Part shown: one piece after another, positions 12,940 through 61,058 of the stretch
How the letters are laid out: every line of letters begins with the position of its first letter
Position numbering within the stretch: position 1 is the stretch's first letter
Virus record (IMG/VR): IMGVR_UViG_3300033233_000014
Coordinates: 47,630-111,629 of that record
Direction: 5' to 3' (one strand)
DNA length: 64,000 bases
DNA from: a virus
Translations under genes and position numbers: made by a program
Notes under the pieces: model-generated
Told to the model about the DNA's origin: nothing
The model's input: only the letters and a program-made list of their open reading frames with translations
Databases searched by the model: none

Positions 12940-12960
12940 GACTGCAGACAGTCTGCAGTC
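12940..12960. promoter_or_regulatory. 21-bp palindrome (operator candidate)
   Basis: GACTGCAGAC-A-GTCTGCAGTC; recurs at 42229 and imperfectly at 44157. Confidence 0.6.
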
Positions 12961-23531: not shown

Positions 23532-23891
23532 TCAAAGTCCGCCCAGTCCCTCCTCGTCGGGGTTGAGCCCCAAATCGATCATCAACCGCCGCAGCGCCGT
23601 GCGCAGACTTGCCACTCCTGCGCCGAGTCCGTCGAGTCGCTGCTCCGTCTTCTCGCGGAACTCGCGCGCCGTTCGCTCCGCACCAGTCTCGCGCTCGCTC
23701 GCCGTCGCCGTCCGATCGCCACCCGACGGTGGTGCCGCGTGCGCTTCGGTGGCGTCCGGCCCGCATGCCACATGCGTCGCCGGCCGCCCCGGCGCCCAGA
23801 GAATCGGATCCCCCACTTCGATCGGATCGCTGCAGACGTCGCAGCGCCCCTCGAACTGCGCCGGGATCTCGCGGTACTCGCGGTCGCTCAC
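23532..23891 (-). CDS. hypothetical protein with zinc-ribbon N-terminus
   Basis: AQFEGRCDVC...IEVGD...HVAC. Confidence 0.65.
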   Translation of the reverse strand: MSDREYREIPAQFEGRCDVCSDPIEVGDPILWAPGRPATHVACGPDATEAHAAPPSGGDRTATASERETGAERTAREFREKTEQRLDGLGAGVASLRTALRRLMIDLGLNPDEEGLGGL

Positions 23892-24136
23892 GCGCGTGCC
23901 TCCTCGTCATCCCAGATACCCCGCACCCAGTCCAACGCCTCTTCGAAGGCGTGGCCGGGTTGTGTCTCCGACGCCTGCATCGCCTCGGCGCTCGCCCACA
24001 CGACTCGCCGGCCGCGGCAACGCGCACATTCGAAGTACGTCCGGCCCCAGCCTTCGCGCACAACACGCCAGCGGTGCCAGAGCCGGCACAGGAACGGCAG
24101 GGGGCCGCGGCAGATGGTGATTGTCGGGTTCTTCAT
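23888..24136 (-). CDS. hypothetical protein
   Basis: LCRLWHRW...CARC. Confidence 0.55.
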   Translation of the reverse strand: MKNPTITICRGPLPFLCRLWHRWRVVREGWGRTYFECARCRGRRVVWASAEAMQASETQPGHAFEEALDWVRGIWDDEEARA

Positions 24137-24285
24137 CGTGTTCCTCCGATCCATCGCGGCAGGCTGGACCTGAACCAGGCCCACCCCCCGGCCAGCGCCG
24201 TCGACCCGCCGATCGCCCAGAGGATCAGCACGTCGAACAGCCCGCCATCGAGCATTCAGCCCATCGGCAACGTCATCGTGTCCTC

Positions 24286-24813
24286 CTACCGCACCCGGAA
24301 CCCGCCGTACTCGGCCGCCTTGGCGAGCCAGTCGAGCCACTCGCCCCAGAATACGTTCGCCTCGGCCTCGGGCCAGTCCTGCTCCTTGACGATCCGCTCA
24401 CGCTTCGCCTTCGCCAGCGCCGCCCGGATCTCCTCGGGATGGACGAGCCAGTCGTCGTTGCTGCAGAACTTCCGAATCGGCATCCCCGTCACGGGCTCCG
24501 CCGCCCGGAAGTCGATCGGCGGGATGCCCTTCCCTGGCGTCGGCTCGACCTCGCGCAGATCGAGCATGCCCTGCACCTCCATCTCGGCCCGGAGTGACCG
24601 CATGCCCCAGACGTTCGCGCGGAAGTAGGCGCCGCACTTCTCGGCGCCCTTGATGTAGCGCCCGTAGAGTTCGCCCCCCCGCCCCACGAGTGCCTTCGCC
24701 TGTTCCGGCTCCGTCTTGTGCAGCCGATCCGCCTCCTCCCACAGCCGATCCGCCTCGGTGCTCAACTCCGCGAGGTTGCCCGGCGGCTGCTCCCAGTACA
24801 TGTCGTAGCCCAT
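24286..24813 (-). CDS. hypothetical protein
   Basis: MGYDMY...YFRANVWGM...KFCSND. Confidence 0.7.
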   Translation of the reverse strand: MGYDMYWEQPPGNLAELSTEADRLWEEADRLHKTEPEQAKALVGRGGELYGRYIKGAEKCGAYFRANVWGMRSLRAEMEVQGMLDLREVEPTPGKGIPPIDFRAAEPVTGMPIRKFCSNDDWLVHPEEIRAALAKAKRERIVKEQDWPEAEANVFWGEWLDWLAKAAEYGGFRVR

Positions 24814-25179
24814 CTACGCGATCTCCCTCTCCGAGAGCCGCTCCGACACCTTCGGCTGCGCCGTCTCCCCAAGGATGTGCTCGACGTCGATCACGGCGCC
24901 GCTCGGCAGCGCGTCCCAGTTGTCGTGGATGAAGCGATGCGCCGTCGGCATCGTGCGCCCGCCCCAGACCGCCGGATCGTGCTGCGCCTCGCACGTCACC
25001 AGCCGCATCAGGACGACGTACTCCCGCTGCTCGTCCCCGGAGAGCCCAAATCCGGCCCGCGCCAGGAGGTAGCGGTCGAGATCGCGCCCCGGGTCGAGAT
25101 CGTGCCCCGGCTCGAGCCGGACAGCGAGTGCCGGGATGAACGTCGCACGGTCGCGGATCTCGAAGGTCTTTGTCTCCAT
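24814..25179 (-). CDS. hypothetical protein
   Basis: FEIRDRATFIP...VIDVEHILGE. Confidence 0.7.
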   Translation of the reverse strand: METKTFEIRDRATFIPALAVRLEPGHDLDPGRDLDRYLLARAGFGLSGDEQREYVVLMRLVTCEAQHDPAVWGGRTMPTAHRFIHDNWDALPSGAVIDVEHILGETAQPKVSERLSEREIA

Positions 25180-25181
25180 GC

Positions 25182-25691
25182 CTACTGCCCCGGGAGCCCG
25201 GACTCCCCGCGCTCGTCCTTGTCCTCGATCACCTTCGGCCCCTCGGGCGTCAGCCCGAGCACCATGACGCCGCTGCGCCGCCCGAACGTCACGCGCTTCT
25301 GGGCCTTCATGTTCGGGAAGACGACTTCCTTGCCCTCGTCCGAGTACTCATCGCGCCGCACCTCGTCCCACGCGAGGTACTCGGCGACCGGCACCCACTT
25401 CCGGCCGAAATTCGACAGCCACGCCTTCCCCTCGTCGAAGGTGTAGGCGAAGTCCGTCGTCCGCGAGTCATCCCACGGCCACGGCCACCCGTGCTCGGGG
25501 AGCGTGGCATCCTCGCGCTTCGCCAGCATCTCGCCGACCGCGGTGCGGAACGCCCGCTCGTCGGTAGCCTGCATCACCGCCGGATGACTCTTGGTGAGTC
25601 CCCCGCCATCCGGGTAGCCGTCCCACGCCGTCGAGCCGAGCCACTCGATCTTCTTGCCCTTCCCGATGTAGTAGTCCGACCGCGTCCCCAT
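25182..25691 (-). CDS. conserved phage hypothetical protein
   Basis: MGTRSD...WDGYP. Confidence 0.72.
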   Translation of the reverse strand: MGTRSDYYIGKGKKIEWLGSTAWDGYPDGGGLTKSHPAVMQATDERAFRTAVGEMLAKREDATLPEHGWPWPWDDSRTTDFAYTFDEGKAWLSNFGRKWVPVAEYLAWDEVRRDEYSDEGKEVVFPNMKAQKRVTFGRRSGVMVLGLTPEGPKVIEDKDERGESGLPGQ

Positions 25692-25703
25692 GCCGTCCTC
25701 CTT

Positions 25704-25973
25704 CTACGCGCCTCGAAGCGCGTGGGTTGCCCACTTCACGATCTTCTCCCCGAACCGCTGGCAGATCTCCCGATAGCACGGATGGTTCAGCAGCCGCTGC
25801 GTCACCGTCCAGCGATCCGCAATCGGCATCCCCGACACTCGCTCGAGGTGCTGGCGCAGCGGGCGCAGCGCTAGCCGCATCGCCTTGTCGTCGCCCTTCG
25901 CCCGCTCCAGCGCCGTGACGGCCGTGCGGAGCATCGCGTCGAGCCCGCCCTTGGGTTCCGCCGGGCTAGTCAT
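25704..25973 (-). CDS. hypothetical protein
   Basis: coupled ORF. Confidence 0.55.
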   Translation of the reverse strand: MTSPAEPKGGLDAMLRTAVTALERAKGDDKAMRLALRPLRQHLERVSGMPIADRWTVTQRLLNHPCYREICQRFGEKIVKWATHALRGA

Positions 25974-26505
25974 AGACGATGCGCCCCGCCTTCGTCGTGA
26001 CGACGTTCTTCTTCACGACGATCTTCCCGACATCGCCCTGCTCCTCCCCCTCCCACGTCACCTCGCCGCTCAGGACGTAGTCCCACGGCTTGAGGAAGTG
26101 CGTGATCAGGTACTGGAGCCATTCGACGTAGGCGTAGAACTTCTCGCCCTCGTCCCAGACGATCGCGGTGCCCTCGGCGTTCGGCACCCATTGGCACCAG
26201 AGGCCGGGCTGCCCCTTCGGGGGCTCGTTGTGATCGCGGACAGAGGGATCCTCTCCCTGCCCGAAGTCCGGCGCCTCGACACGGCCCGTCTTCCGGTCGA
26301 GTCGCGCGCTCCCGACGTAGTAGCCGCCCTCGGTTCCGATCAGGAGTCCAGCATCCAGCCGGATCGGATCTTCAATGCGTGCCGCCTTCGCCGCGTCACG
26401 CTTCATGCGGCGCGTCTCGGCGAACGCCTGGAGGTAGCGCCGGTGCTTGGCTGCCAGCGGCTTGTTCAGCGCGAACTCGCCCGTGAAGTTGGTGGTGTAG
26501 CCCAT
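25966..26505 (-). CDS. conserved phage hypothetical protein
   Basis: MGYTTNFTG...PGLWCQW...EKFY..VEWLQYLI. Confidence 0.75.
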   Translation of the reverse strand: MGYTTNFTGEFALNKPLAAKHRRYLQAFAETRRMKRDAAKAARIEDPIRLDAGLLIGTEGGYYVGSARLDRKTGRVEAPDFGQGEDPSVRDHNEPPKGQPGLWCQWVPNAEGTAIVWDEGEKFYAYVEWLQYLITHFLKPWDYVLSGEVTWEGEEQGDVGKIVVKKNVVTTKAGRIVYD

Positions 26506-26533
26506 CGCTTCTCCTCCGCGCGCTCCGCGCGAG

Positions 26534-26755
26534 TTAGACCTCGAACTCGCGATCCGAGAGCATGATGATCGGGCCCGCGCCACGCGGCTCGGCGTCCGTC
26601 TGCCCCTGGACCGCCACGAGCGGACGATCCGTCACCTCGTCCCCATCGATCTCGGCCGTGAGCATGATCTGGGCCTGCTCGGGATCCGTGCAGCCCATCT
26701 CGCGCAGGTCGAGTTCGGCCCCCGCCAGCAGCACCCTGAGTCGTGCAAGAGTCAT
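26534..26755 (-). CDS. hypothetical protein
   Basis: TAATG-coupled ORF. Confidence 0.55.
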   Translation of the reverse strand: MTLARLRVLLAGAELDLREMGCTDPEQAQIMLTAEIDGDEVTDRPLVAVQGQTDAEPRGAGPIIMLSDREFEV

Positions 26756-27003
26756 TAGTTCGTTCCTCCCTTGAGGGCGCGGCGCATCACGCGCGCCCGC
26801 GCCTGGGCCTCGTGTCCCACCGAAAGCAGCGTGAGCAGGAGGCGCTTGAGCGCCCCACGCACCCGCTGCGGCTCCCCGCCATCGAGCGACAGGAACGTGA
26901 GCCCCTCGGGCGTCTCGGGGAAGTGGAGCACCGCCCCGTAGGGCGTCTCGATCCCGATCATCGGCCCCGCCGTCCGCGCCTGAGATTCGCTCGCCGTCTT
27001 CAT
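26755..27003 (-). CDS. hypothetical protein
   Basis: ATGA-coupled ORF. Confidence 0.55.
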   Translation of the reverse strand: MKTASESQARTAGPMIGIETPYGAVLHFPETPEGLTFLSLDGGEPQRVRGALKRLLLTLLSVGHEAQARARVMRRALKGGTN

Positions 27004-49041: not shown

Positions 49042-49289
49042 CCCTTGGCCTGCACCCCGTGCCGCGCCAGCACGTCGCGGAACTGGTCACGGATCTCTTG
49101 GAAGCAGCGCGGCGGCTTGACCTGCACGCGACTGGCAAGATCCTGCACCAGCGCCGACGCGAGGGCGTGGCCGTCCGCCGTGCCGCCGTCCACGCGGAAG
49201 CCCGGGCCCTGGGTGATCCGGGTGTGGCCGTCCCCGCAGAGGACGATGCCCTGCACGAACGGCCCGACGGCAGACCGTCTGCCTTTCAC
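49038..49289 (-). CDS. hypothetical protein
   Basis: GTGA-coupled ORF. Confidence 0.45.
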   Translation of the reverse strand: MKGRRSAVGPFVQGIVLCGDGHTRITQGPGFRVDGGTADGHALASALVQDLASRVQVKPPRCFQEIRDQFRDVLARHGVQAKG

Positions 49290-49819
49290 GCCGGGTTGTC
49301 CGCCTCGAGGCGCTCGATCAGCGCGTCCTTCGTGCCGTACTTCGCCAGCCCGCGCTTTACACACGCCGCCTGCAGTTCGGCCTTGCTCATCGCCCCGTAG
49401 TCCGGCTTCGCCGTCTTGGCCTTCTTGCCCGCACGATCATCGAGGAACTTCTCGGCCTTCTCCACCGACTTCGGCGTCAGTTGCCCGCCCGAGGCGACGA
49501 ACACGGCGGGCGTCGGCGCCACCGACACGGACATCGGCAGCGGCTTCGCCGTCTCGCGCAGCGCCTCGGCCGGGTCGAACTCGGCCTTCGTCGTCACGCT
49601 GAACCGTCCGCCGACGGAGGCGAGCGTGGCCGCAAACAGCGCGGCCTGCGCATTCGTGAGGCCCTCGATGGTGATGCTGCTCACCTGCGACAGGCTCTGG
49701 TTCTGGATCATGACCTTCGCCCGCTCGAACGTCGCCTTGTCGGCGACGCGCAGCGCGCCCAGCACAACCCGATCGGCATCCACGGTGGGCGGCGAGATTG
49801 TGACCGTCAGGCGCGACAT
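49286..49819 (-). CDS. SAP-domain DNA-binding protein
   Basis: C-terminal YGAMSKAELQAACVKRGLAKYGTKDALIERL. Confidence 0.78.
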   Translation of the reverse strand: MSRLTVTISPPTVDADRVVLGALRVADKATFERAKVMIQNQSLSQVSSITIEGLTNAQAALFAATLASVGGRFSVTTKAEFDPAEALRETAKPLPMSVSVAPTPAVFVASGGQLTPKSVEKAEKFLDDRAGKKAKTAKPDYGAMSKAELQAACVKRGLAKYGTKDALIERLEADNPA

Positions 49820-52497
49820 GCGGCCTCCTTGTCGTCGAGCGACACCACCAGCGGCGTGTGATCCCGGTGCCGCGCGTCGCCCGGCGCGGAGATCTTCGTG
49901 CCCTGCTTCCCCCACCACGGGAGGATCACCAGGCTCTTCTCGGGCGGGGTGGACGGCTCGTCGGGCGTCTTCGGCCACGCCGGCTCGCCCCGCTCGGGCA
50001 CGAATCCGATGCCGAATCCCGCGCCAGGCGATGCCTCGGGCTTCTCGGACGACGGCTCGGGCAGGCGCTCCGTCGTCTCCCCCATGCGCTTCATCTGCGC
50101 TGCCGCGTCTCGCACCTGGCGCGTGGCGTTTGCCAGGTGCTCCATCGCGGTGCCGGCCGCCGCGACCGCCCCGGCGAGGTTCTTCTCCCCGATCTGCCGA
50201 CGCGCTCGCGCCAGGAGCAGCGCCGACTCGGACATCTGCGCCTGCGCCTGGCGGTGTCCATCCTCGTCGAGCACGCCCTCGGCCGCGGCCGTCGCCACTG
50301 CACTCGCCGTCGCCGCGTGCGCCTGCACGCCCTCGTGCAGATGCCGCGCGAGATCGATGGCCGCCAGGCGCTGGGCGAAGCCACCCTTCGCCGCCTGGAG
50401 CGCCCGCTCGGCCGACGTGAGTTCATCCGCGACGTCGCTGATCTTCCACTTGGCGTTCTCCGCCAGGTCGTCCGCCCGCCCGGCGCGCTCCTGCATATCC
50501 TCGACGAGTTTGGCGGCGGCCTCGGCCCGATCCCGGGCGGCCTCGGCGACCATCGCCGCGGCGCGGGCCAACTTCACTTCGCCATGCTCGGCCGCCTGCT
50601 TGGCCTGCGCCGCCGCCATCTTGGCCGCCTCGGCGTGCTGCCGCGCGCCCGGCGCCTTCAGCGCCGCTTGCGCTGCATCCTCCGCCCACTCCTGGGCTAC
50701 CTGCGCCTCGCGCTGCGCCCATTCGGCCGGCGTCAACGGAGTCTTCGGCGCCTTGGGCTTCGCGCGCTCGCGCGTCTCCCATGCCTTCTTCGCGCGCTCG
50801 CTGGCCTCCTCGGGCGTGAGCGCCTTCTCGGCGAGCCAGCGCTCGATGGCCGGCTCGCGCACGCCCGGCGCCTTCACGCCTGGCGCCGCCGCTCCAGGCG
50901 CCGCCACGGCCGGCGGTGGGGCGCGCCGCTTCTGGATTTCGCCCCAGACGCCAGGCAGGGCCTTCTGCTGCTCGGCCGACCGCTCGAGTTTGTCGAGGAA
51001 GCGATCCCACATGCCCTGCACCGTGCGCAGTGCCTGGGTGAGCCCGGCGCCGGCTGCGCCGACGCGTCCCGTGTCCATGCGCCCGCTCTTGTCCCGCGCC
51101 TTCGCGGCCTCGGCGAGATCCTTGCGGCGCTTCTTGATGTCGCGCTGCACGCTGTTGAGTTGCTTCTGGAAGTCCTGGTAGTGCTGGCGCGAGGCGAGCG
51201 TCCCCAGCAGCGAGCCCGCGGGCTTGATCAGCCCCAACTCCAGGATGCGCCGCTCGATCTGGGCCGAGGTCACGAGCGCCTGGTCCTCGGCGATGCTCTG
51301 GAGTTGCTGCTCGAGCGCGGGCACCGCCTTCGCCTGCTTCGGATCCTTCTGCGCCGCCGCCACCGCCTGCGCCTGCGTCGTCACCCGTTCGCTGCTCTGG
51401 ATGGCCGGCGCCACGCCCCGCACCGGCGCCGTGGTGAACGGCCGCCCCGTGGCCTTGGCCGCGTGCGACCGTGCCGCCGCTGCCGCGGCGTAGGCGTAGG
51501 CGCGGTCGTTCTGGGCGCCCGCGTAGTCGCCGTCCTTCGCCCGCTGTTCCGCCCGATCCGCCACCCGCGCCGATTCCTCCGCCCACTCGGTCGCCTGGGG
51601 CGACTTCGCCGCCCCGGCCGCCGCCGCGGCTTCCCGGGCGGCCTGCTGCGCGTCGGTGACGAACTGGGCCATGTCCGCCTGCCGCTGCTTGGGGGCGAGC
51701 GCCTCGACGCGCGCCGCCTCTTCCTGTTCCCCGTCCACCTCAGCCTCCGGCGGCTCGGTGGCGATCTCCTCTTCCCCTTCCGGCGGCTCCTGCGCCCGTG
51801 CGCCCCGCTGACGCGACTCCCACGCCTTCTTGCTGCGCTCGGAGAGTTCCGCGGTCGTCAGCGCGTCCTTCTCCATCGCGGCGGCGACGATGGCCTTCGC
51901 GCGCTCGGCGGCCGACTCGACGGCCGCCTTCGGGTACGGCACTTCGGGCACCTGCTGCAGGATCGTCTGCATCGCCCCGACGAAGGTATCCCGCGCCTCG
52001 GGTGTGGCTCCCGCATCCAGGGCATCGGCCGCCTGCCGAGCGGCAATCCCCTCGGCCGCGTGCCCTGCGCGCGTCAACCGATCCGCCGCCCGTCGCGCCA
52101 GCACGACGGCATCCCGCACCGGGCCGGCTCGCGCCAACCGCCTGGCGTTCTCCACCATGAAGAGCGCCAGGTTCGCCTGGCGCCCGCGCTTCTCCCACGC
52201 CAGCCGGGCCGCCTCCTGCCGCTTCGGATCCTTCGGCTCGCTGGCCTTGTGGAGGCACGCCTCGCACGTCGGGTGCGAGCCATCCGCCGGCTGGTGGGCC
52301 AGCGTCGGCCCGTGCGTCGCGCACTTCACCCAGTCGTGGCCGTTCGCACAGCGCTGGTGCTGGGTGCCGCACCGGCACGACACCGTCGCATCCCCGCCAC
52401 AGGACGGGCACGTCGCGTTCTTCGCCGCTTCCGGCGGCTTCGCACCCCCTGCGGCCCTGCCGAATCGCCGGAGGTCGTCGTAGGTGATGAACGGCAC
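49807..52497 (-). CDS. large Ala-rich helical protein, putative internal virion polyprotein (3 AW-motif copies)
   Basis: 896-aa ORF; N-terminal Cys/His finger; RLAWEKR, KKAWESR, KKAWETR. Confidence 0.75.
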   Translation of the reverse strand: MPFITYDDLRRFGRAAGGAKPPEAAKNATCPSCGGDATVSCRCGTQHQRCANGHDWVKCATHGPTLAHQPADGSHPTCEACLHKASEPKDPKRQEAARLAWEKRGRQANLALFMVENARRLARAGPVRDAVVLARRAADRLTRAGHAAEGIAARQAADALDAGATPEARDTFVGAMQTILQQVPEVPYPKAAVESAAERAKAIVAAAMEKDALTTAELSERSKKAWESRQRGARAQEPPEGEEEIATEPPEAEVDGEQEEAARVEALAPKQRQADMAQFVTDAQQAAREAAAAAGAAKSPQATEWAEESARVADRAEQRAKDGDYAGAQNDRAYAYAAAAAARSHAAKATGRPFTTAPVRGVAPAIQSSERVTTQAQAVAAAQKDPKQAKAVPALEQQLQSIAEDQALVTSAQIERRILELGLIKPAGSLLGTLASRQHYQDFQKQLNSVQRDIKKRRKDLAEAAKARDKSGRMDTGRVGAAGAGLTQALRTVQGMWDRFLDKLERSAEQQKALPGVWGEIQKRRAPPPAVAAPGAAAPGVKAPGVREPAIERWLAEKALTPEEASERAKKAWETRERAKPKAPKTPLTPAEWAQREAQVAQEWAEDAAQAALKAPGARQHAEAAKMAAAQAKQAAEHGEVKLARAAAMVAEAARDRAEAAAKLVEDMQERAGRADDLAENAKWKISDVADELTSAERALQAAKGGFAQRLAAIDLARHLHEGVQAHAATASAVATAAAEGVLDEDGHRQAQAQMSESALLLARARRQIGEKNLAGAVAAAGTAMEHLANATRQVRDAAAQMKRMGETTERLPEPSSEKPEASPGAGFGIGFVPERGEPAWPKTPDEPSTPPEKSLVILPWWGKQGTKISAPGDARHRDHTPLVVSLDDKEAACRA

Positions 52498-52512
52498 CGG
52501 GCGCCTCCCGCG

Positions 52513-52716
52513 CTACTTCTTCTCGTCAGCCGGTGCCGCCGGCGGCGTGGCCGTCGCGGGCGTAGCCGGCGCCTCAGCCGTGGTGGGCGTCGCCGGCTTC
52601 GCCGGGGTGCCGCCCCCGAACACGCCGGTGGCGTAGGCCACGACCGCCGCGATCACCGCGGCCAGCAGCCCGAGCCAGGTCTTCTTGTCCTTCAGCAGCG
52701 CGACGATCTTGTCCAT
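52513..52716 (-). CDS. small membrane protein (holin-like)
   Basis: KKTW plus one TM helix, Pro/Ala tail; AAGGAG SD. Confidence 0.6.
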   Translation of the reverse strand: MDKIVALLKDKKTWLGLLAAVIAAVVAYATGVFGGGTPAKPATPTTAEAPATPATATPPAAPADEKK

Positions 52717-52734
52717 CGGGAATCTCCTTGGCCG

Positions 52735-53949
52735 CTAGAACGGCCGATGTGTGGGCGGACTCGGCGCGGCGAGCACCGAGTGCGGCCGGGCCCAGCGCGG
52801 CGAGAGGATGTCGCTGAGTTCGATGGGCTCCTCGCTCTTGCCGACCTGGGCCTTGCCCTCGGAATTCAGCAGCGCCCCGCGATGCCAGAACAGCCGGGCC
52901 GCGTCCAGCATGCCATACGCGTTGAACGTCGTGCCACGCGTGAACGCCTTCTCCCAGTCGGTGATCGCGTTCGCCATGTTGATCATGCGGCGCAGGTGCT
53001 GGCGATGGCCTTCGTCCTGCCCGCGGGCATCGATGTCGGCATTCCGCTTGCCCCGTTCGTCCTCGGCGCGTTCTTCGTTCTTGACTCGGCGATTCCGATC
53101 AAGGTAGGCCACATTCTTCGTCAGGTTGATCTCCGCATCGGTCGCCACCACGCGCCCGGCGACGGTCTTGAGCGGCGTGTCCCGCGACGCGCCGACGAGC
53201 GCCGCGAGGCCGTCATCGTGCCACGCGAATTCCCCGCCCGCCTTCGCCTTCTCCCGCAACTGGTCGCGCGGGGACAACTTGGCGTAGGCCGCGGCGTCGT
53301 CAATCTTCACTTCGGGCTTGGGCTTCTCGGCCGGCTTCTTCTCGGGCTCCTCTCCGAGATCGGGCCGCATGTAGACGCCTGGCGCACCATGCCGCCGCGA
53401 CTCCCACGCCAACTTCGACCGCCGATGCGCCGCGCTCGGCGAGATGGCCTTGTCGAGCGACCGCTCGAAGTGGCCGACTACCGCATCGGCGAGATTGTCT
53501 TGGATGGACACGAGTTCATCCGCACCATAGAGATCGGTAATGTCGCGCCCATCGGCATCGGTGATGCTCAACACGGAGGCGGACGGGTTCGATCCCGGTT
53601 CGTCCCGCGTCTGTCGCTCGCCGGGCTCGAACTCGTACTCGATGCGCACGAGCGGCTCGCCCTCGTCGACGCTCTCGGGCGTCTCGGCGTAATACACGCC
53701 CTCTCCGCCGCGCCGCGACGGCCACTTGTCCTTCGCGTCCTTCAAATCGAAGCCCTTGATCGGCGGGCGCTTCTCGGTCGGAGTACGCGGCTCGTCCGGC
53801 ATCCTCCTCGACCCACGCGCCTCGGCTTCCCGCCGCTCGGCGCCAGAGCGTTCGCGCTTCTGCCACGCCCGCTTCGCGCCCCCAGACGTGCCGATCTTCG
53901 TCAGCACGTCACCAACGAGCGTCGCCGCCAGTTCGCGCATCGTGCTCAC
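52735..53949 (-). CDS. putative internal virion protein (2 AW-motif copies)
   Basis: KRAWQKR, KLAWESR. Confidence 0.72.
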   Translation of the reverse strand: MSTMRELAATLVGDVLTKIGTSGGAKRAWQKRERSGAERREAEARGSRRMPDEPRTPTEKRPPIKGFDLKDAKDKWPSRRGGEGVYYAETPESVDEGEPLVRIEYEFEPGERQTRDEPGSNPSASVLSITDADGRDITDLYGADELVSIQDNLADAVVGHFERSLDKAISPSAAHRRSKLAWESRRHGAPGVYMRPDLGEEPEKKPAEKPKPEVKIDDAAAYAKLSPRDQLREKAKAGGEFAWHDDGLAALVGASRDTPLKTVAGRVVATDAEINLTKNVAYLDRNRRVKNEERAEDERGKRNADIDARGQDEGHRQHLRRMINMANAITDWEKAFTRGTTFNAYGMLDAARLFWHRGALLNSEGKAQVGKSEEPIELSDILSPRWARPHSVLAAPSPPTHRPF

Positions 53950-55232
53950 GCCGCCGCTCCCGCCGGCACCATGCCCGGCATCGCCGCGCCCTCTTCCTCC
54001 TCGTGGATCGCCGCGAGGATCTTCCCGAAGTCCTCGGCCGGCATGCGCTGCATCCGCACCTTGGCCTGCTGGAACGCCTGCGGCGTCGGGTAGTTCTGCG
54101 GGTTCATGTTGGTGAGGAAGTCGCGCTTGAGTTGGTCGATGGTCCGGCCCTTGCCCCGCTGGCCCAGCGTCGTCTTGAAGCCCGCCATCTCCTCCACGTC
54201 CTCCGACTGATTCGTGAGGCCGTGGCGCGCCATGATGCTCTGGACCTTCCGGGTGGACGCCTGATCGACCGTCGCCCGGACGTGCGGCGTCGTCGGGGCT
54301 CCCGCCGGTGCGCCTGCCGGCGCCGCCTCCGGCTGTTCCTCTGGGGCGGCCGGCATCGCCGGCGGGGCTGCCGCGGCCGGCGGAGCCATCGGCGCCTCGG
54401 CCGGCATCTCCGGCATCTCGGCGCCCGGGGCCTCAGCCGGTGCCGCGCCCGACGGTGCGCCCGGCACGGCCCGTTCTCCGGCCCGACGCCGCGTCTCCCA
54501 CGCCTGCTGCGCCCGCGCGGACGCCGCGCTCGGGTCGATCTTGGACATCACATCGCCGACGATGGCCGCCACGAGCGCCGCCGCCGCGGTCCGAATGCCG
54601 CCCATCGGGACGATGTTCACCTTCCCTACGGGCGCCGCCGGCATCGCCGGCTTGGCCGCCGGTGGCGCCTGGTGGGGCTGCTTCCACGGCGGCGGCTTCG
54701 GGGCCGGAGGCGCCTGCTCGGCCTCGGGCTGCGCGTACTCGCCCGGCGGGCGCGAATCGAAACCTTCGGGCCCGCCCAGATGGCCCGGCACCGTCATGTC
54801 GTAGGCGGCCTTCTCCGATGCCTTCTTGAGATGCGCCCGCGCGTTCTTGCGGCACATCGAGAAGGCGATCGCTACGGCCTGCTTCTGTTCCTTGCCCTCG
54901 CGGATCAGGAGCGGGATCTTCGCCGACACACAGCGCCGGATGGCCGCCGAGTCCTGCGCCTTCTCGAGTTCGGTGGTGCAGGCGCGCAGGATCGTGGTGA
55001 GTTCGGGACAGGTGTCGCACTCCACGCGGTCGCCAAAGACGATCGCCCGCTCGAGCACCTGTTGGAACTCGGCGAGCAGCGCCGTCTCCTCGGCCGGGCT
55101 CAGCTCGGCATCCAGCGGCTCGAGCGCCTTCTCGACCCGCGCCGACGGCAGCACCGGCGGCACGTAGCCCGACGGCGCGGTCAACGTCTTGGCGAACAGG
55201 CCGCTGGTCGTCTCGCTGGCGAAGTTGCGCAT
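53946..55232 (-). CDS. putative head-associated protein (AW motif)
   Basis: CVSAKIPLLIREGKEQKQAVAIAFSMC, a motif type seen in phage head-module proteins; QQAWETR; several xEKA sites. Confidence 0.72.
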   Translation of the reverse strand: MRNFASETTSGLFAKTLTAPSGYVPPVLPSARVEKALEPLDAELSPAEETALLAEFQQVLERAIVFGDRVECDTCPELTTILRACTTELEKAQDSAAIRRCVSAKIPLLIREGKEQKQAVAIAFSMCRKNARAHLKKASEKAAYDMTVPGHLGGPEGFDSRPPGEYAQPEAEQAPPAPKPPPWKQPHQAPPAAKPAMPAAPVGKVNIVPMGGIRTAAAALVAAIVGDVMSKIDPSAASARAQQAWETRRRAGERAVPGAPSGAAPAEAPGAEMPEMPAEAPMAPPAAAAPPAMPAAPEEQPEAAPAGAPAGAPTTPHVRATVDQASTRKVQSIMARHGLTNQSEDVEEMAGFKTTLGQRGKGRTIDQLKRDFLTNMNPQNYPTPQAFQQAKVRMQRMPAEDFGKILAAIHEEEEGAAMPGMVPAGAAA

Positions 55233-55278
55233 GCCGCCTCCCCGTGGCCCGGCATCCTATCCATTCCCCGGGATGTTG

Positions 55279-56007
55279 TCAGCGCTTTGTCGGCTCGGTG
55301 CCTGGCTCCGTGCGCTCATGAACGGCCTGGGAGTAGTTCCCCAGGGCATCGTCGAGCGCAGTGCGCGCTTCGTGCAGCGTCTCGACGGCCGCCTCGATCT
55401 TCTCGCCGGCGTTCTGCACGTCCTCCCAATTCGGATTCCCGCCCGGGGAGGAATCGAGTCGCGCCGGGCCCGGCTTGAGCAGATCCCGCACCTGGGGCAA
55501 CTTCATCGTCACGGCATTCAGCCGTTCCAGCGCCTGCTTCGTGGCGTCCGTCCGGAACTGCTCCGGCAGCGCCTCTCCGAGTTGCCGGTACGCCTTGGCC
55601 GCGTCCTCCACCTTCTCGGATGCCTCGCGGAAGTTCTCGATCGCGCTGGCGTACTGGCGCTCGTCGACGACGTAGGTGCCCTCGAGGCGATCCGTCCGCA
55701 GGGCATCTCCCAGATCGCTCTCGCCCGCCGTGCGCGCCGCATCGGCGTCCTCCGCCTGCTCATCCCCGAGATCCAGGCGATTGCTCAACTCGGTGAGATG
55801 CGCCCGCGTCATCGGCGCCGACGGCGTCTCGGGCTTCGCCCGTTCCCGCTTCTGCCACGCCTTCTTCGCCCGTTCCGAGGCCGACTCGGGGGAGATGGTC
55901 TTCTCCACGACCGCCGCGAGGATCTCCTCGGGGTCGACCGGCGTCACCGGCCCGCGCAGCGCCTTCTCGAGCACGCCGCCAAACTGCACGCTCGCGGGAA
56001 TGCGCAT
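55279..56007 (-). CDS. putative internal virion protein (AW motif)
   Basis: GGAGG SD; VEKTISPESASERAKKAWQKR. Confidence 0.72.
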   Translation of the reverse strand: MRIPASVQFGGVLEKALRGPVTPVDPEEILAAVVEKTISPESASERAKKAWQKRERAKPETPSAPMTRAHLTELSNRLDLGDEQAEDADAARTAGESDLGDALRTDRLEGTYVVDERQYASAIENFREASEKVEDAAKAYRQLGEALPEQFRTDATKQALERLNAVTMKLPQVRDLLKPGPARLDSSPGGNPNWEDVQNAGEKIEAAVETLHEARTALDDALGNYSQAVHERTEPGTEPTKR

Positions 56008-56009
56008 GG

Positions 56010-56342
56010 CTAGTCCTCCACGGGTTCGGCCCGCGTATAGGTGCCGCGCGCATGTTGCGCCAGCAGCATCACGAGGAACCGCTTGCCGTCTTCCGGCATC
56101 ACCGGCGAAAGCCGATCGGTCTTGTTCTCCGGCGTCTGGAAATCGACGTCGTACTCCGCCCCGATGTCGTTGAGCAACGGCAGATCGTTGCGGTGCGGGC
56201 GGAGGCCGTGCTGCTTCCACTCGTGGAACTTCTCCCGATCACCGCTGATCATCTTGGCCGCGCCGTCCTGCAGGCGGATCTCGGTGACCGTCCGCTCCTT
56301 CTCACCATCCGTCGTCACAATTCGCACGCCGCGGAGTGCCAT
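56010..56342 (-). CDS. hypothetical protein
   Basis: ORF directly downstream of the kinase gene. Confidence 0.65.
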   Translation of the reverse strand: MALRGVRIVTTDGEKERTVTEIRLQDGAAKMISGDREKFHEWKQHGLRPHRNDLPLLNDIGAEYDVDFQTPENKTDRLSPVMPEDGKRFLVMLLAQHARGTYTRAEPVED

Positions 56343-56345
56343 CGC

Positions 56346-57731
56346 TTACCTCTTCGCCTCGAGATCGGCCGCCCGGCCGAGGACGCGGTAGTATCCGCCA
56401 TCCGGCCAGGCGCCCGCCCTGGCGTAGTGCTGGAGTGCGCGGAGACGATATCCCGCGCTCCGCGCGTCCCGTTTCTCGAATCCCTGCTCGGTCATGATGG
56501 CCTCGACCCGTTCGGGGGTGAGCGAGAGGATCTCTTCCTGCACCGGCTCCGGGATCTTGCGCCCCCGGAGGTAGTCGAGCGGATCGTTCCGAAACTCATC
56601 GACCTCCATGTCCCGCGGGAACGCGAGGCCATTATCGATGGCGTACCACCGGCCATCGTCCCCTCGCCGGAGGTTATGCCCATGCCGATCGGTGTTGGCG
56701 GTGATGAGGTCGAGCGCCACGATGCGATGCTTGTCCTCGTGGTGCCGCTCTGCCTCAAGGACGTTGGAGGGGATCTCGTCAGGATCGCGGCCCTTCACGA
56801 ATGCCATGACGTGCCCTTCGCCGGAACTCACCTTCTCGCTGAGTTTGAACCGCCCGGCCAGCCCTCCGGCGCCTTGGAGCTGCTCGCGGCGCGCCTGGAG
56901 AAGACGCTCGTCTTTGCCGTAGTCGACAACCTCGACCGGCGGCACCACGTCGAACCCGGCCGTCGCGCTGATCTGGAAGGCCGCCATCTCGCGCCGCGCC
57001 TCGGGCGGATCCTTGGATAGCGTGGGGCGGAGGGGTCTCCCACCGCGGTCTTCGTAGAACGCGAGTCCCGTCTCCTGCGTCGGCTTGAAGATCCCCCGCG
57101 TTCCGTCGGCGAATTTGACGATGTACACCTGGCCGACGTTCTGCTTCCCGCTGAGGCGCTTCAGGCTGCTGATCTTGCTGTTGTCCGCATGCGCGCTCCG
57201 AATCGTGTCCCGGTTCTGCTCTACGGCCTTCTGCGGGTTGCGCAGCGGCTTCTCCGCCAACGGCTTCGAAGGTTCTCGCTTGGGTTCCGGCTTGGGTTCC
57301 GGCTTCGGTTCCGCCTTGGGGGGCTCGGGCGGCGCCGGCTTCGCCGACGGGGGCTTGGGCGGAGGCGCCGGCGCAGCTTTCGGCGCGGGGGCCGCCTTCG
57401 GAGCCGCCAGCGCCGGCTTCGGGGGCGGGACGGGATGCCCGGCCTCCAGCGCCTGGCGCCGCAGGCTTGCCTCTTCGAAGACCTGATCGGCCTGGTGCTG
57501 GCGGTTCCCGGCCTCCACGAAGCGCTTCTTCCGTCGTAGCGCCACCGCCTCCTGCGCCAGCCCCTCGGCGAACACCCGCTGCCGCTTCTCCCACGCCTTG
57601 AAGCCGGCCGCGACCCGCACCGGATCCTTGCCGGCCGTGGTCTTCTCCACGATATCCGGTGCTCGCACCGGCGCTCGCTCGAGCGCGGCGAGGAACCCGC
57701 CCCGGAAGCCCTCGCTCAACGTGGTGCGCAT
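56346..57731 (-). CDS. PI3K/PI4K/HipA-like kinase domain protein with AW-motif leader
   Basis: GIFKP, REMAAF, VVPP, LDLITANTDRHGHN (catalytic loop), AIDNGLAFP. Confidence 0.85.
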   Translation of the reverse strand: MRTTLSEGFRGGFLAALERAPVRAPDIVEKTTAGKDPVRVAAGFKAWEKRQRVFAEGLAQEAVALRRKKRFVEAGNRQHQADQVFEEASLRRQALEAGHPVPPPKPALAAPKAAPAPKAAPAPPPKPPSAKPAPPEPPKAEPKPEPKPEPKREPSKPLAEKPLRNPQKAVEQNRDTIRSAHADNSKISSLKRLSGKQNVGQVYIVKFADGTRGIFKPTQETGLAFYEDRGGRPLRPTLSKDPPEARREMAAFQISATAGFDVVPPVEVVDYGKDERLLQARREQLQGAGGLAGRFKLSEKVSSGEGHVMAFVKGRDPDEIPSNVLEAERHHEDKHRIVALDLITANTDRHGHNLRRGDDGRWYAIDNGLAFPRDMEVDEFRNDPLDYLRGRKIPEPVQEEILSLTPERVEAIMTEQGFEKRDARSAGYRLRALQHYARAGAWPDGGYYRVLGRAADLEAKR

Positions 57732-59186: not shown

Positions 59187-59680
59187 GCCGGCGCGCCCTC
59201 CACCGGCGGCGTGCTCGCCACCACCGGCGGCGGGGATGTTACCTCTGCGGCCGGGGCCGGCGCCGCTGCTTTCGCCGCCGCCTCCTTCGCCGCTTCCTGC
59301 TTCTTCAACTCGTTCGACGACGCCTGGAGTTCCTCCATGATCTGCTTCGCCCGCTCCGTGACTTCCGCCCGGTTGATGAGCCCCTTGCGCTCCAGCACGT
59401 CGAGCAGCGCCGCGAACATGACGTGGACGGAGTTGATCTCGTGCTGGTGCGCTGCGAGGTGCCGGCTCACGCTCTGGGTGAGCCCCGCGGCGACTGCCTG
59501 CTGGACCTGGGTGGCCAGGGCCTGCGCCACCGCGTTGATCTCGGTCCGCGCCACGGATGTCGCCAACCTTCCGTAGTCGTCCCGCGTCATGATCGTCGGC
59601 CGCCGTCCCCCGAGGACGTCGATCGGCTCGAACAGCGGCGGCCGAGACTGCGGCCTCACACTAGGCTTCGGCGGTTCCAT
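59183..59680 (-). CDS. hypothetical protein
   Basis: ALLDVLERKGLINRAEV. Confidence 0.62.
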   Translation of the reverse strand: MEPPKPSVRPQSRPPLFEPIDVLGGRRPTIMTRDDYGRLATSVARTEINAVAQALATQVQQAVAAGLTQSVSRHLAAHQHEINSVHVMFAALLDVLERKGLINRAEVTERAKQIMEELQASSNELKKQEAAKEAAAKAAAPAPAAEVTSPPPVVASTPPVEGAPA

Positions 59681-61058
59681 AGCGTTGCTCCTCTGCCCAC
59701 CCGCCCCACTTGTAAAGCCCCTCGACCTGGGCCAGCGTCTTCGCCATCGCCGAGTCGAACCCGAGGCTGGCGATCGTGCGCGTGACCGCATCCGTGATGT
59801 CCACCGGCTCGAGGATGAGCTGCCGGCCCTTGCCGCGCCCGCGCTCGACAGCCAGCGCCATCGCGTAGTTGACCGCCTCGACGACGTGCGCCCCGCTCGC
59901 CCGCGCCTTCGCCAACTCGTGCGCCGCCCGTTGCAACTGCTGCGGATCGCCGGCGTAGGACACGTTGCGCTTCGCCAGCGTCCGGCGGAGCAGGTCGAAC
60001 GCCTGCTGGGGCGCCGGCGGGCCCAGGAGCAACTTCACGTCGAAGCGTCCGGGGCGCTGGGTGAGGGCGCTGTCCAGCACTTCGGCGTAGTTCGATGAGA
60101 GGATCGTGATCACACCCTTGTTGCTCTCGACCCCGTCGAGCAGGTTGAGCAGATCGCCCAGCAGGGGATGGAACTGGCCGAGCCGCCGATCCAGGCCGAA
60201 CACGTCGGCGTCCTCGAGCAGCACGACGGTGGGGGCGATCTCGCGGGCGAAGTCGTAGATGTGCTGGAAGCCCATCTCGATCACCTGCGCCGGCGAGCAC
60301 CAGATGAAGGCGCAGTCGAGCTTCTTCGCCAGCACCTTCATCGACATCGACTTCCCGGTGCCCGGCGGGCCCGCCAGGATGATGCCGCGCTTGTTCGGGA
60401 TGCCGAAGCGCTCGTACTCCGCCGCGTGCTCGACCATCTGCGCGACGTTGCGGAACAGTTCCCGCTTGAGATCGTCCGGGAGAATCAAGTCCTCCTCGGT
60501 CACGTCGTCGAGTTTCAAGAACCGGCCGGTGATGTCGATCTTGGCCTTCTTGAAGAAGTTGTGGGTGGCGATCCAGTCGTCGACCGCCTTGAAGAACGCC
60601 TCGACCGCGGGCTGCTGATCAACCCGCGCGGTGACGTTCACCACCATGTGCCGCATCGCCGGGGACACCGAGAGCAGGAAGCGCTGGGGCTCGCCCTTCT
60701 CGGTGTAGCGCAGGACCGCGGAGGCATCGAAGAGCACCGAGCGCTCCTGCGTGGGGCTCACCGGGACGACGCTGAACTTGGGCGGGATCTCGTGGTGGTG
60801 GTAGTCGTCGCTGAAGACCCGCTCCCGGACGTACGACGGGGGCTTCCCGCCTCCCGCGGGCAGCGTCAACTCCTCGAAGGCCACGCCCCACAGCGGCCAG
60901 CGCCAGAACGGGACGTGCTTCTCGAACGTGCGGTGCTGGTCCAGTTTGTCGCCCAGGATCTCGCGGGCGATCGCGAAGTTCAGCCGGAGGGGACTGAAGG
61001 CGTCCCGCAGACCGGCGAAGTACTTCTCGGGGGCGAGAGGCGGAACCGGATCGCTCAC
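59661..61058 (-). CDS. classical-clade AAA+ ATPase (CDC48/FtsH/BCS1-like, single domain)
   Basis: RGIILAGPPGTGKS, LLEDAD, LLNLLDG, LDSAL.QRPGRFD. Confidence 0.92.
   Translation of the reverse strand: MSDPVPPLAPEKYFAGLRDAFSPLRLNFAIAREILGDKLDQHRTFEKHVPFWRWPLWGVAFEELTLPAGGGKPPSYVRERVFSDDYHHHEIPPKFSVVPVSPTQERSVLFDASAVLRYTEKGEPQRFLLSVSPAMRHMVVNVTARVDQQPAVEAFFKAVDDWIATHNFFKKAKIDITGRFLKLDDVTEEDLILPDDLKRELFRNVAQMVEHAAEYERFGIPNKRGIILAGPPGTGKSMSMKVLAKKLDCAFIWCSPAQVIEMGFQHIYDFAREIAPTVVLLEDADVFGLDRRLGQFHPLLGDLLNLLDGVESNKGVITILSSNYAEVLDSALTQRPGRFDVKLLLGPPAPQQAFDLLRRTLAKRNVSYAGDPQQLQRAAHELAKARASGAHVVEAVNYAMALAVERGRGKGRQLILEPVDITDAVTRTIASLGFDSAMAKTLAQVEGLYKWGGWAEEQRYGTAEA

Follow-up and report, generated by a model that had tools for sequence, protein, structure and literature searches.

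A tag module repeated in five adjacent genes of an uncultured phage is a candidate address for proteins loaded into the phage head

Results

The stretch of DNA analysed here (the window, 64,000 nucleotides) covers bases 47630-111629 of the 111,629-base IMG/VR virus record IMGVR_UViG_3300033233_000014 (G000), which comes from an uncultured phage of the contractile-tail type. The record has a G+C content of about 68%, carries nearly every gene on the minus strand and has an estimated completeness of 73%. Our subject is a cluster of minus-strand genes encoding protein A (896 residues, 49807..52497), protein C (404 residues, 52735..53949), protein D (428 residues, 53946..55232), protein E (242 residues, 55279..56007) and protein F (461 residues, 56346..57731), in which a short peptide module recurs eight times. 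We refer to the module as the tag, to its hydrophobic-x-Lys element as the junction and to the basic, Trp-containing helix that follows as the header.

In all six frames, the header motif AW[EQ].R has exactly eight occurrences in the window and no more than these eight in the full 111,629-nt record; they map to minus-strand sequence from window position 50770 to 57596, within five adjacent open reading frames (three in A, two in C and one each in D, E and F). Amino-acid composition predicts 0.45 copies in the whole proteome and 0.06 in the five proteins, and the Poisson probability of at least eight copies in these five is ~4e-15. Every copy has a Lys 9-15 residues ahead of AW and a hydrophobic residue two places before that Lys (8/8); the junctions read LHK, MEK, AEK, LTK, LDK, MSK, VEK and VEK, with Lys as the sole residue common to all of them. 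Once the modules are masked, no similarity is detected among the five proteins at BLASTP E < 0.1, and they are therefore 'otherwise unrelated'. At the DNA level the copies are 46-77% identical and use different synonymous codons, and it is therefore the peptide that is conserved and under selection. A first-pass annotation of this DNA, made by reading the sequence, had reported eight motif copies in five neighbouring and otherwise unrelated proteins; the six-frame count and the masked comparison bear it out on both points, and the peptides that it quoted are exact on re-reading. Two other readings of the repeats were discarded: a recombination site or gene-conversion tract, as no DNA-level conservation was found among the copies, and a twin-arginine translocation (Tat) signal (T-R-R), as no hydrophobic stretch follows.

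Protein A carries its tags at residues 100, 225 and 572. The diverged module A1, ...CEACLHK↓ASEPKDPKRQEAARLAWEKRGR (52159..52290; here and below the arrow marks the junction), and module A2, ...RAKAIVAAAMEK↓DALTTAELSERSKKAWESRQR (51784..51915), are recognised both by the motif and by a hidden Markov model (HMM) of the tag; module A3, ...AIERWLAEK↓ALTPEEASERAKKAWETRERAKP (50743..50874), scores 34 bits against the family-wide tag HMM described below. The N-terminal part of A is Cys-rich and zinc-ribbon-like, and helical segments rich in Ala, Glu and Arg lie between the tags. Protein C is tagged at residues 28 and 181, by module C1 at its very N-terminus (MSTMRELAATLVGDVLTK↓IGTSGGAKRAWQKRER, 53827..53949) and by module C2 (...VVGHFERSLDK↓AISPSAAHRRSKLAWESRRH, 53368..53499; motif and HMM). 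The modules of A and C match no Pfam or PHROG family. The two proteins have a second feature in common, a C-terminal motif h-h-x-P-[WRG]-W-[AG]-[KR]...(V/I)(A/S)(A/P)P (h, hydrophobic) situated 20-40 residues before the end. In A it occupies residues 855-896 (window 49810-49935), with ILPWWGKQGTKISAPGD at residue 860, and in C residues 380-404 (52738-52812), where it reads LSPRWARP...THRPF. The same motif occurs in P0005, in P0008 (a relative 62% identical to C), in the tag-bearing 1113-residue P0027 and in the D-like protein of a related phage, G001. It may act as a propeptide or anchor at the C-terminus; T4 Alt bears one at either end.

Protein D has one internal tag, at residue 244 (...GIRTAAAALVAAIVGDVMSK↓IDPSAASARAQQAWETRRR, 54462..54593), which is preceded by a whole leader-like helix; a weak leader, MRNFASETTSGLFAK, is also present at the N-terminus, and the G001 counterpart of D is g1_47016. 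Separately, residues 102-134 of D hold a small Cys...QAVAIAFSMCRK motif that matches phrog_2423 (E 6e-7). This motif is the only part of D kept in an otherwise unrelated IMG/VR contig (L010) and is present in the D-like protein of G001.

Protein E consists, in order, of the leader MRIPASVQFGGVLEK, a second VVEK junction, the tag at residue 50 (...EEILAAVVEK↓TISPESASERAKKAWQKRERAKP, 55819..55950; motif and HMM) and a helical, TPR-like domain; its start codon is confirmed by the relatives P0004, P0006 and P0025. Protein F follows the same plan, with the leader MRTTLSEGFRGGFLAALER...DIVEK, a tag at residue 46 that is the most diverged of the eight (...RAPDIVEK↓TTAGKDPVRVAAGFKAWEKRQR, 57555..57686; 6 bits against the family-wide HMM), a linker rich in Pro, Ala and Lys and, last, a putative catalytic domain of the PI3/PI4-kinase-like type. 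The kinase-like assignment draws on a match to Pfam PI3_PI4_kinase (PF00454) of 25.0 bits, below the cut-off of 27.1 (E 2.1e-5), and on a catalytic-loop pattern DRHGHN ... IDNG read by eye; a PDB sequence search with F returned nothing meaningful. F is 39% identical over 299 residues to the G001 kinase g1_45475.

The tag belongs to a widespread family

A profile built from the eight copies was run exhaustively against 1.84 billion (1.84e9) protein representatives at E <= 1e-3 and retrieved 49 tag-bearing proteins (clusters), many of them with 2-9 copies. Alignment of 125 distinct copies on the Trp yields the core G-T-S-E-G-A-K-K-(A/G)-W-(E/D)-(T/S)-R-(R/G)-(R/G)-G. The window has a second variant, (L/I)-(T/S)-P-E-x-(A/R)-S-E-R-A-K-K-A-W-E-T-R, and of its eight copies C1 comes nearest to the general GTSEGAKKAW core. 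The two variants replace one another at orthologous positions: copy 3 of A, KALTPEEASERAKKAWETRER, corresponds to KAGTPEGAKRAWERRER in P0005 (72% identical; orthologous site VDKAGTPEGAKRAWERRER), and the E copy corresponds to EKAGTPEGAKRAWEKR in P0025 (orthologous site VVEKAGTPEGAKRAWEKRER). The window modules therefore qualify as true, diverged members of the family. In agreement with this, seven of the eight score 21-34 bits against the HMM of the 125 copies, a set that includes the window's own, and the F copy scores 6 bits. Very probably, then, the window holds a local version of a tag that is widespread, apparently undescribed, and placed at the head of modules in phage proteins of the polyvalent or cargo type.

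The view of the tag as a module header comes from its placement. In a sample of 54 proteins with 137 tags, the first tag starts <=60 residues from the N-terminus in 32 proteins, the last ends <=40 residues from the C-terminus in only 6, and the median tag-to-tag spacing is 156 residues, from which we conclude that the tag heads modules. The window copies are placed alike, near the N-terminus in C, E and F (residues 28, 50 and 46, respectively) and at internal module starts in A, C and D. In the 1386-residue P0009, segments of A recur in permuted order, each with a tag of its own (P0009 67-389 match A 185-517; P0009 738-900 match A 64-240). Some of the proteins thus behave as the polyproteins that the first-pass annotation took them for. 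Its further claim, that one module is reused on unrelated proteins, extends well past this phage, since elsewhere the tag heads modules of MuF-fused polyvalent proteins. P0010 combines MuF, HNH, GNAT, ADP-ribosyltransferase (ART) and DUF3626 domains with six tags between them, and nine tags accompany MuF, a 2H phosphoesterase and five stretches of ADP-ribosyltransferase in P0015 (3397 residues); ART-PolyVal (P0041), zeta toxin (P0030) and a GNAT, 2H and pterin dehydratase combination (P0033) are tagged as well. MuF, ART, zincin MPTase and LPD domains were found in none of A-F, and are seen only in the tag-sharing proteins of other genomes.

Numbered from the Trp (position 0), the conserved A(-4), A/G(-1), W(0) and R(+3) line a single face of a helix with an S/T-x-x-E cap and a Gly end. 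Several metagenome proteins (P0029, P0045, P0048, P0052 and P0054; 82-182 residues, P0048 305 residues) consist largely of 2-3 tandem tags such as S-E-A-A-K-K-A-W-E-T-R-R-K-K-G; the existence of tag-only mini-proteins suggests that the header has an activity of its own.

We found no curated family for the tag, Pfam and PHROGs both being silent, and in the literature library searched we found neither a paper containing its characteristic strings nor a publication that names it. A word-indexed search with the module profile returned close relatives only, and a protein atlas search with the E tag returned generic helices only. No match was obtained by tblastn with D, the E tag, the tag-only P0052 and P0016, which has three tags, in 50,697 cultured-phage records, a search in which the low-complexity filter may hide the tag. 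Scans of IMG/VR for related loci, with D, P0009 or P0012 as the query, yielded at most a single marginal locus each, and a degenerate DNA pattern for the core gave 14 stretches on 9 IMG/VR contigs.

A lineage-specific junction precedes the universal core

Position -13 is hydrophobic in 76 of the 125 copies. Position -11, two before the core, is Lys in only 40 of the 125 and N, D or A in other lineages, the G002 junction, for example, being hydrophobic-x-A-(Y/F/H). The first-pass annotation had placed a hydrophobic-x-Lys element ahead of the motif; this is true of all eight window copies and does not extend to the tag in general. Among upstream positions -11 is the most coherent within a lineage, with 55% of within-protein pairs identical versus 17% after shuffling (z = 12), a figure to which recent duplication could have contributed in part; positions -3, -2, +1 and +2 have no within-protein coherence. 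A universal core behind a lineage-specific junction is what would be expected if the junction were read by a factor of the phage's own, for example its head protease.

A leader of the form M-[RK]-T-x-x-S-x-x-F-[GA]-x-x-L..L-x-K opens proteins E and F, which are the only proteins of the phage's own proteome with this pattern at the N-terminus; D and C fit it less well. It also opens three G001 proteins and the metagenome proteins P0037, P0038, P0040 and P0050, in which the header follows directly after the Lys. The internal copy of D, GIRTAAAALVAAIVGDVMSK, resembles a complete leader in which another residue stands in place of the Met, a pattern that fusion of two units to give D would produce. 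The shortest N-terminal forms have 6-8 residues ahead of the Lys (MIGYFAK↓AGTSEG, MVALDK↓AG..). The idea of a pro-helix, put forward in the first-pass annotation, gains support from this N-terminal leader that ends in Lys and is common to E, F and proteins of other phages. The accompanying statement that a similar helix precedes several copies can be upheld for C copy 1 and D, which share the helix L(A/V)A(T/A)(L/I)VGDV(L/M)(T/S)K, the D helix being leader-like.

The junction site recurs in the scaffold and the capsid protein

Between the portal and capsid genes lies a gene for a 609-residue protein (record 25158-26987; L008:6158-7987). Its residues 1-215 were modelled with 22 homologues at a predicted local distance difference test score (pLDDT) of 80, with the core above 90. 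The model aligns with the T4 prohead protease gp21 (5jbl_B) over 132 residues at a VIA-align Z of 11.6 and a root-mean-square deviation of 2.9 A, and with herpesvirus proteases at Z 7-9; His89, Ser147 and His180 of the protease domain are invariant. By its predicted fold, the 609-residue protein is a gp21/assemblin-fold head protease fused to a scaffold-like region. A PDB sequence search with the protease domain gave nothing, and Pfam Peptidase_S78 had no match in the five records tried. The N-terminal phrog_760 domain of P0047 and P0034, considered as possible kin of the protease, was rejected because hhalign detects no relation to the protease profile.

The remainder of the 609-residue protein contains 8 [AVILM]-E-K sites versus 1.16 expected, the strongest excess in the proteome, a count that may be inflated because hydrophobic-E-K is expected on structural grounds to be enriched in coiled-coil scaffolds. 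The scaffold part of 64 homologues holds 228 such sites versus 72 expected, and R(V/I)EK↓(A/S)GG(V/I)S is conserved near the scaffold end. The capsid protein (record 23730-25127; L008:4730-6127) has a single hydrophobic-E-K site, LIEK↓TIA at residues 19-22, and in 75 capsid homologues a variable leader of 2 to ~22 residues is followed by a near-invariant NEE-h-h-EK↓(T/S)I, which, from its sequence context, is a likely maturation site. The 64-75 metagenomic homologues of the protease and capsid genes lie on contigs as long as 270 kb. The check proposed in the first-pass annotation, that the same x-x-K site be sought in the capsid and protease genes, thus has a positive outcome in both. The hydrophobic-x-K site is therefore present in the capsid leader, the scaffold repeats and the leaders of the putative cargo, which speaks to its presence and not to its use; the data do not separate a cut after the K from a cut after the preceding E.

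Tag clusters of other phages

The phage G001 (109-kb record, 63% G+C) is a distant relative, with a portal 66%, a terminase 49%, an AAA ATPase 49% and a kinase 39% identical to those of the present record, and it keeps the order of the cluster: AAA ATPase, kinase, D-like protein, tagged proteins. Its kinase orthologue has a like leader and, after the Lys, a different header of the HPR type (ILAK↓ATWDPDLHPRSEGGKF). Headers therefore look interchangeable. In G001 as a whole (locus L032, 38001-58000; g1_41256, g1_43077, g1_45475, g1_49104) two further header types follow the junction Lys, (F/W)-(D/E)-E-x-x-HPRD-x-x-G-(K/R)-F and G-S-G-H-F-G-H-A-G-R-P-G-x-x-G-G-S, and P0038 has the related form RPRDGNGRF. 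Neither the HPR-type nor the GRPG-type header was found in the present record, which has the AW type only.

The second genome, G002 (120.7 kb, 56% G+C), has no genes in common with this phage except DNA methylases. It carries 11-12 tags in one gene cluster, and one of its tag genes encodes an InPase domain of the polyvalent type.

Genes within and around the cluster

Two untagged minus-strand genes lie inside the cluster. One, known from its translation, encodes a 67-residue protein (52513..52716) with one hydrophobic, membrane-like segment and a Pro/Thr/Ala-rich tail; the other encodes a 110-residue protein (56010..56342) to which no function is assigned. The neighbours of the cluster are non-structural: an AAA+ ATPase upstream, a DNA methylase fragment at the window's far end and a SAP-domain protein downstream. 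The AAA+ ATPase (465 residues, 59661..61058, minus strand; Pfam AAA E 2.6e-17) is 49% identical to G001 g1_38269, which keeps the equivalent relative place. Its N-terminal domain comprises 190 uncharacterised residues, and two related phages conserve an ATPase of this kind beside the cluster. The gene product immediately downstream of A (window 49286-49978) ends in a SAP domain (Pfam E 1.5e-8). The SAP domain is a DNA-binding helix-extended-helix motif. Elsewhere in the window, the sequence of an 877-residue DNA methylase (N6_N4_Mtase, 12959-15592) is broken up by matches that are weak and below threshold, one to an intein splicing domain (24.1 bits versus a cut-off of 35.8) and one to a LAGLIDADG homing-endonuclease domain (20.2 versus 22.5), and the protein may contain an intein. 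The genes for the large terminase, portal, HK97-fold capsid protein, sheath, tape measure and baseplate are located at record 2-43 kb, outside the window. A portal-terminase packaging system, one of the features by which membership of the polyvalent-protein class is judged, is accordingly encoded by this record.

Discussion

We propose that the eight modules are probably copies of a two-part address unit carried by proteins that are loaded into the phage head and delivered together with the DNA. The first part would be a short, amphipathic, leader-like helix ending in hydrophobic-x-Lys; this end, which is lineage-specific, would be the recognition site, and probably also the cleavage site, of the gp21/assemblin-type head protease that the phage itself encodes. 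The second part would be the basic Trp helix, (T/I)(S/T)PExASERAKKAWExRxR here and GTSEGAKKAWETRRRG in general. As the header is nearly the same in unrelated lineages, it most likely binds something common to all of them, our guess being DNA packaged in the head or some conserved element of the head's inside. A and C would then be chains of such units (polyproteins), D would join two of them, E and the kinase-like enzyme F would each be one unit, and the five-gene set would represent a 'split' version of the giant polyvalent effector proteins of other phages. We put the probability that the unit consists of a leader, a protease site at the Lys and a header, on proteins loaded into the head, at about 0.5; presence in the virion, cutting, the position of the cut and the partner of the tag are all inferred from the patterns described above.

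The distribution of the protease speaks for the proposal: of ten other tag-bearing virus records searched, this type was found in G001 alone, the other phage with a K-type junction. The nine records in which it was not found include four complete genomes and three with a junction residue that was read and was non-K.

A number of observations weigh against the proposal. The match between protease type and junction residue comes from two related phages. The parallel test in G002 lends no clear support: the junction motif hydrophobic-x-A-[YFH] is not enriched in the candidate scaffold and capsid proteins, where there is one HAAAY↓E, and an AADF↓M near the capsid N-terminus. ELIEK is kept in the capsid protein of Streptomyces phage Coruscant, which starts MSDELIEK and so has only 8 residues before the cut position; the capsid ELIEK may instead be a structural feature of the N-arm. 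Likewise, the coiled-coil bias in the scaffold count and the possible share of recent duplication in the coherence of position -11 reduce what these two numbers can tell us.

Other points concern the cargo. The only recognisable enzyme-like domain is that of F, a single-module protein, and PF04233 (MuF) has no match at E <= 1 in this ~73% complete record. A model with a cut site followed by an N-terminal header leaves the C-terminal tags and the tag-only mini-proteins (P0029, P0045, P0048, P0052) unexplained. AlphaFold predicts the 44-residue unit as a helix, a break at G-T and a second helix, at a moderate pLDDT of 63. Finally, the cluster lies ~55 kb away from the head and tail gene block, next to the AAA ATPase and with a DNA methylase ~6 kb further upstream. 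It could therefore belong to an early, cytoplasmic gene set.

This last point leads to the rival explanation that survives best, which we consider unlikely: the tag would serve as a binding peptide in the cytoplasm of the infected cell and play no part in the head. Unrelated early or middle phage proteins would be brought by the basic Trp helix to a partner that they share, such as nucleic acid or a conserved host machine, and the upstream helix and Lys would form with it a small helix-turn-helix unit in which nothing is cut. The setting of the cluster among non-structural genes (AAA ATPase, methylase, SAP-domain protein) at such a distance from the head genes fits well, as do the near-invariance of the core across unrelated phages, which points to a universal partner, the placing of A(-4), A/G(-1), W(0) and R(+3) on one face, and the predicted helix-break-helix. 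The rival also accommodates the tag-only mini-proteins with 2-3 tandem copies (P0029, P0045, P0052) and the tags that end proteins, as in P0048, which closes with three in tandem, and P0047, which closes with one. However, a docking peptide does not account for the return of the tag at each module boundary of the MuF-fused giants, for the shift of the residue at -11 with phage lineage, or for the occurrence of hydrophobic-E-K in the capsid leader and its excess in the scaffold, and the 6-8 residues ahead of the Lys in the minimal forms are too short for a structural helix.

Less probable still is an evolutionary joint, that is, a conserved linker for module swapping by recombination, or a flexible spacer that lets modules fold independently, in either case without a specific partner. 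Modules are indeed shuffled and permuted exactly at the tags (A versus P0009), orthologous kinases carry different headers, and tags lie a domain length apart. Against this, copies with 46-77% DNA identity and different synonymous codons would make poor substrates for homologous recombination, and a 16-residue consensus with invariant Trp and Arg, maintained in phages of 49-70% G+C, is not what a spacer would show. Very improbable is a role of the tag as a substrate mark for the AAA+ ATPase next to the cluster, with that enzyme recognising the basic helix and acting as a motor for unfolding, remodelling or loading: the ATPase does lie 2 kb upstream and keeps its relative position in G001 at 49% identity, but it is seen in two related phages only, whereas the tag occurs in many lineages, including G002 with its 11-12 tags and no homologue at BLASTP E < 1e-5.

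The closest parallel to the proposed address unit is found in phage T4, where the internal proteins IPI, IPII, IPIII and Alt carry a capsid-targeting sequence (CTS) that is removed by the prohead protease gp21 (Mullaney & Black 1996; PMC9026906), and where the capsid protein, the scaffold (with many cuts) and the internal proteins have a common L/I-x-E gp21 site (PMC9026906). Like the leader described here, the CTS is an N-terminal leader on unrelated proteins with an end motif that is also present in the capsid protein and repeated in the scaffold. Both phages have a gp21-fold protease (predicted here), cargo genes (here putative) away from the head block and a cargo set that varies among relatives. 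The T4 leader has 10-19 residues and ends in L/I-x-E, whereas the junction here is hydrophobic-x-K. T4 also lacks a conserved header after the cut, in contrast to the 16-residue basic Trp helix common to unrelated lineages, and does not chain its units in polyproteins. Packaging and cutting are proven in T4, and for the present phage we infer them from sequence.

Polyvalent proteins of the phage type have been predicted to be packed in the head and injected, the MuF head component serving as the link, by Iyer et al. 2017 (PMC5512222). The tag is shared with these MuF-fused effectors, where it stands between MuF, ART, ART-PolyVal, GNAT, HNH, 2H phosphoesterase, zeta toxin and InPase domains; as proposed here, those proteins have swappable modules and a predicted delivery with the DNA (PMC5512222). 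The window set differs in being split over five genes, with no MuF and one enzyme-like domain. For processing, Iyer et al. propose embedded zincin peptidases and not the head protease, and text searches of the paper found no inter-module tag (PMC5512222).

In phiKZ, 201phi2-1 and SPN3US, inner-body and ejection proteins are processed by gp175/gp245 (PMC10052503, PMC7411985). As in our proposal, a diverged gp21-like protease acts on many proteins inside the head at a short motif common to them, and the propeptides have several cut sites. Unlike the Lys junction, these cuts follow Glu in motifs of the S/A/G-x-E type, and the substrates are paralogue families with long propeptides and no reported conserved header after the cut. 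The Dar system of P1 (DarA, DarB, Hdf, DdrA/B, Ulx; PMC12810830, PMC9024508) likewise builds unrelated anti-defence proteins into the head for injection, with proteolytic processing of DarA, but incorporation proceeds via a hierarchy of protein-protein contacts and not via a shared peptide tag, and there is no sequence similarity to the window set.

A broader suggestion, which we make tentatively and hold to be doubtful at present, is that the GTSEGAKKAW-ETRRRG helix, together with the HPRD-GKF and GHxGRPG headers, constitutes a universal cargo header across unrelated lineages of tailed phages. With each lineage's own head-protease site placed in front, it would hold proteins in the DNA-filled head and inject them with the DNA. 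If true, phages would possess a portable two-part code, a lineage-specific cut site plus a universal header, for loading and releasing injected proteins, and injected effectors would be recognisable from sequence alone.

Injected proteins are the first weapons to meet host defences, and they are known for only a handful of model phages. Should the tag turn out to be a cytoplasmic binder of host or nucleic-acid partners, it would still represent an undescribed, widely shared short motif of phage proteins. If the address-unit proposal is correct, the processing of polyvalent proteins into their separate domains, predicted long ago, would gain a testable site and a candidate enzyme, the head protease instead of an embedded zincin peptidase, and leader, cut site and header could be tested together, in the laboratory, as a portable route for loading chosen proteins into phage heads. 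Finally, if the tag is a mark of head cargo, sequence data would suffice to draw up lists of injected effectors for thousands of uncultured phages, and candidate anti-defence or take-over factors would then include the uncharacterised modules of A, C, D and E.

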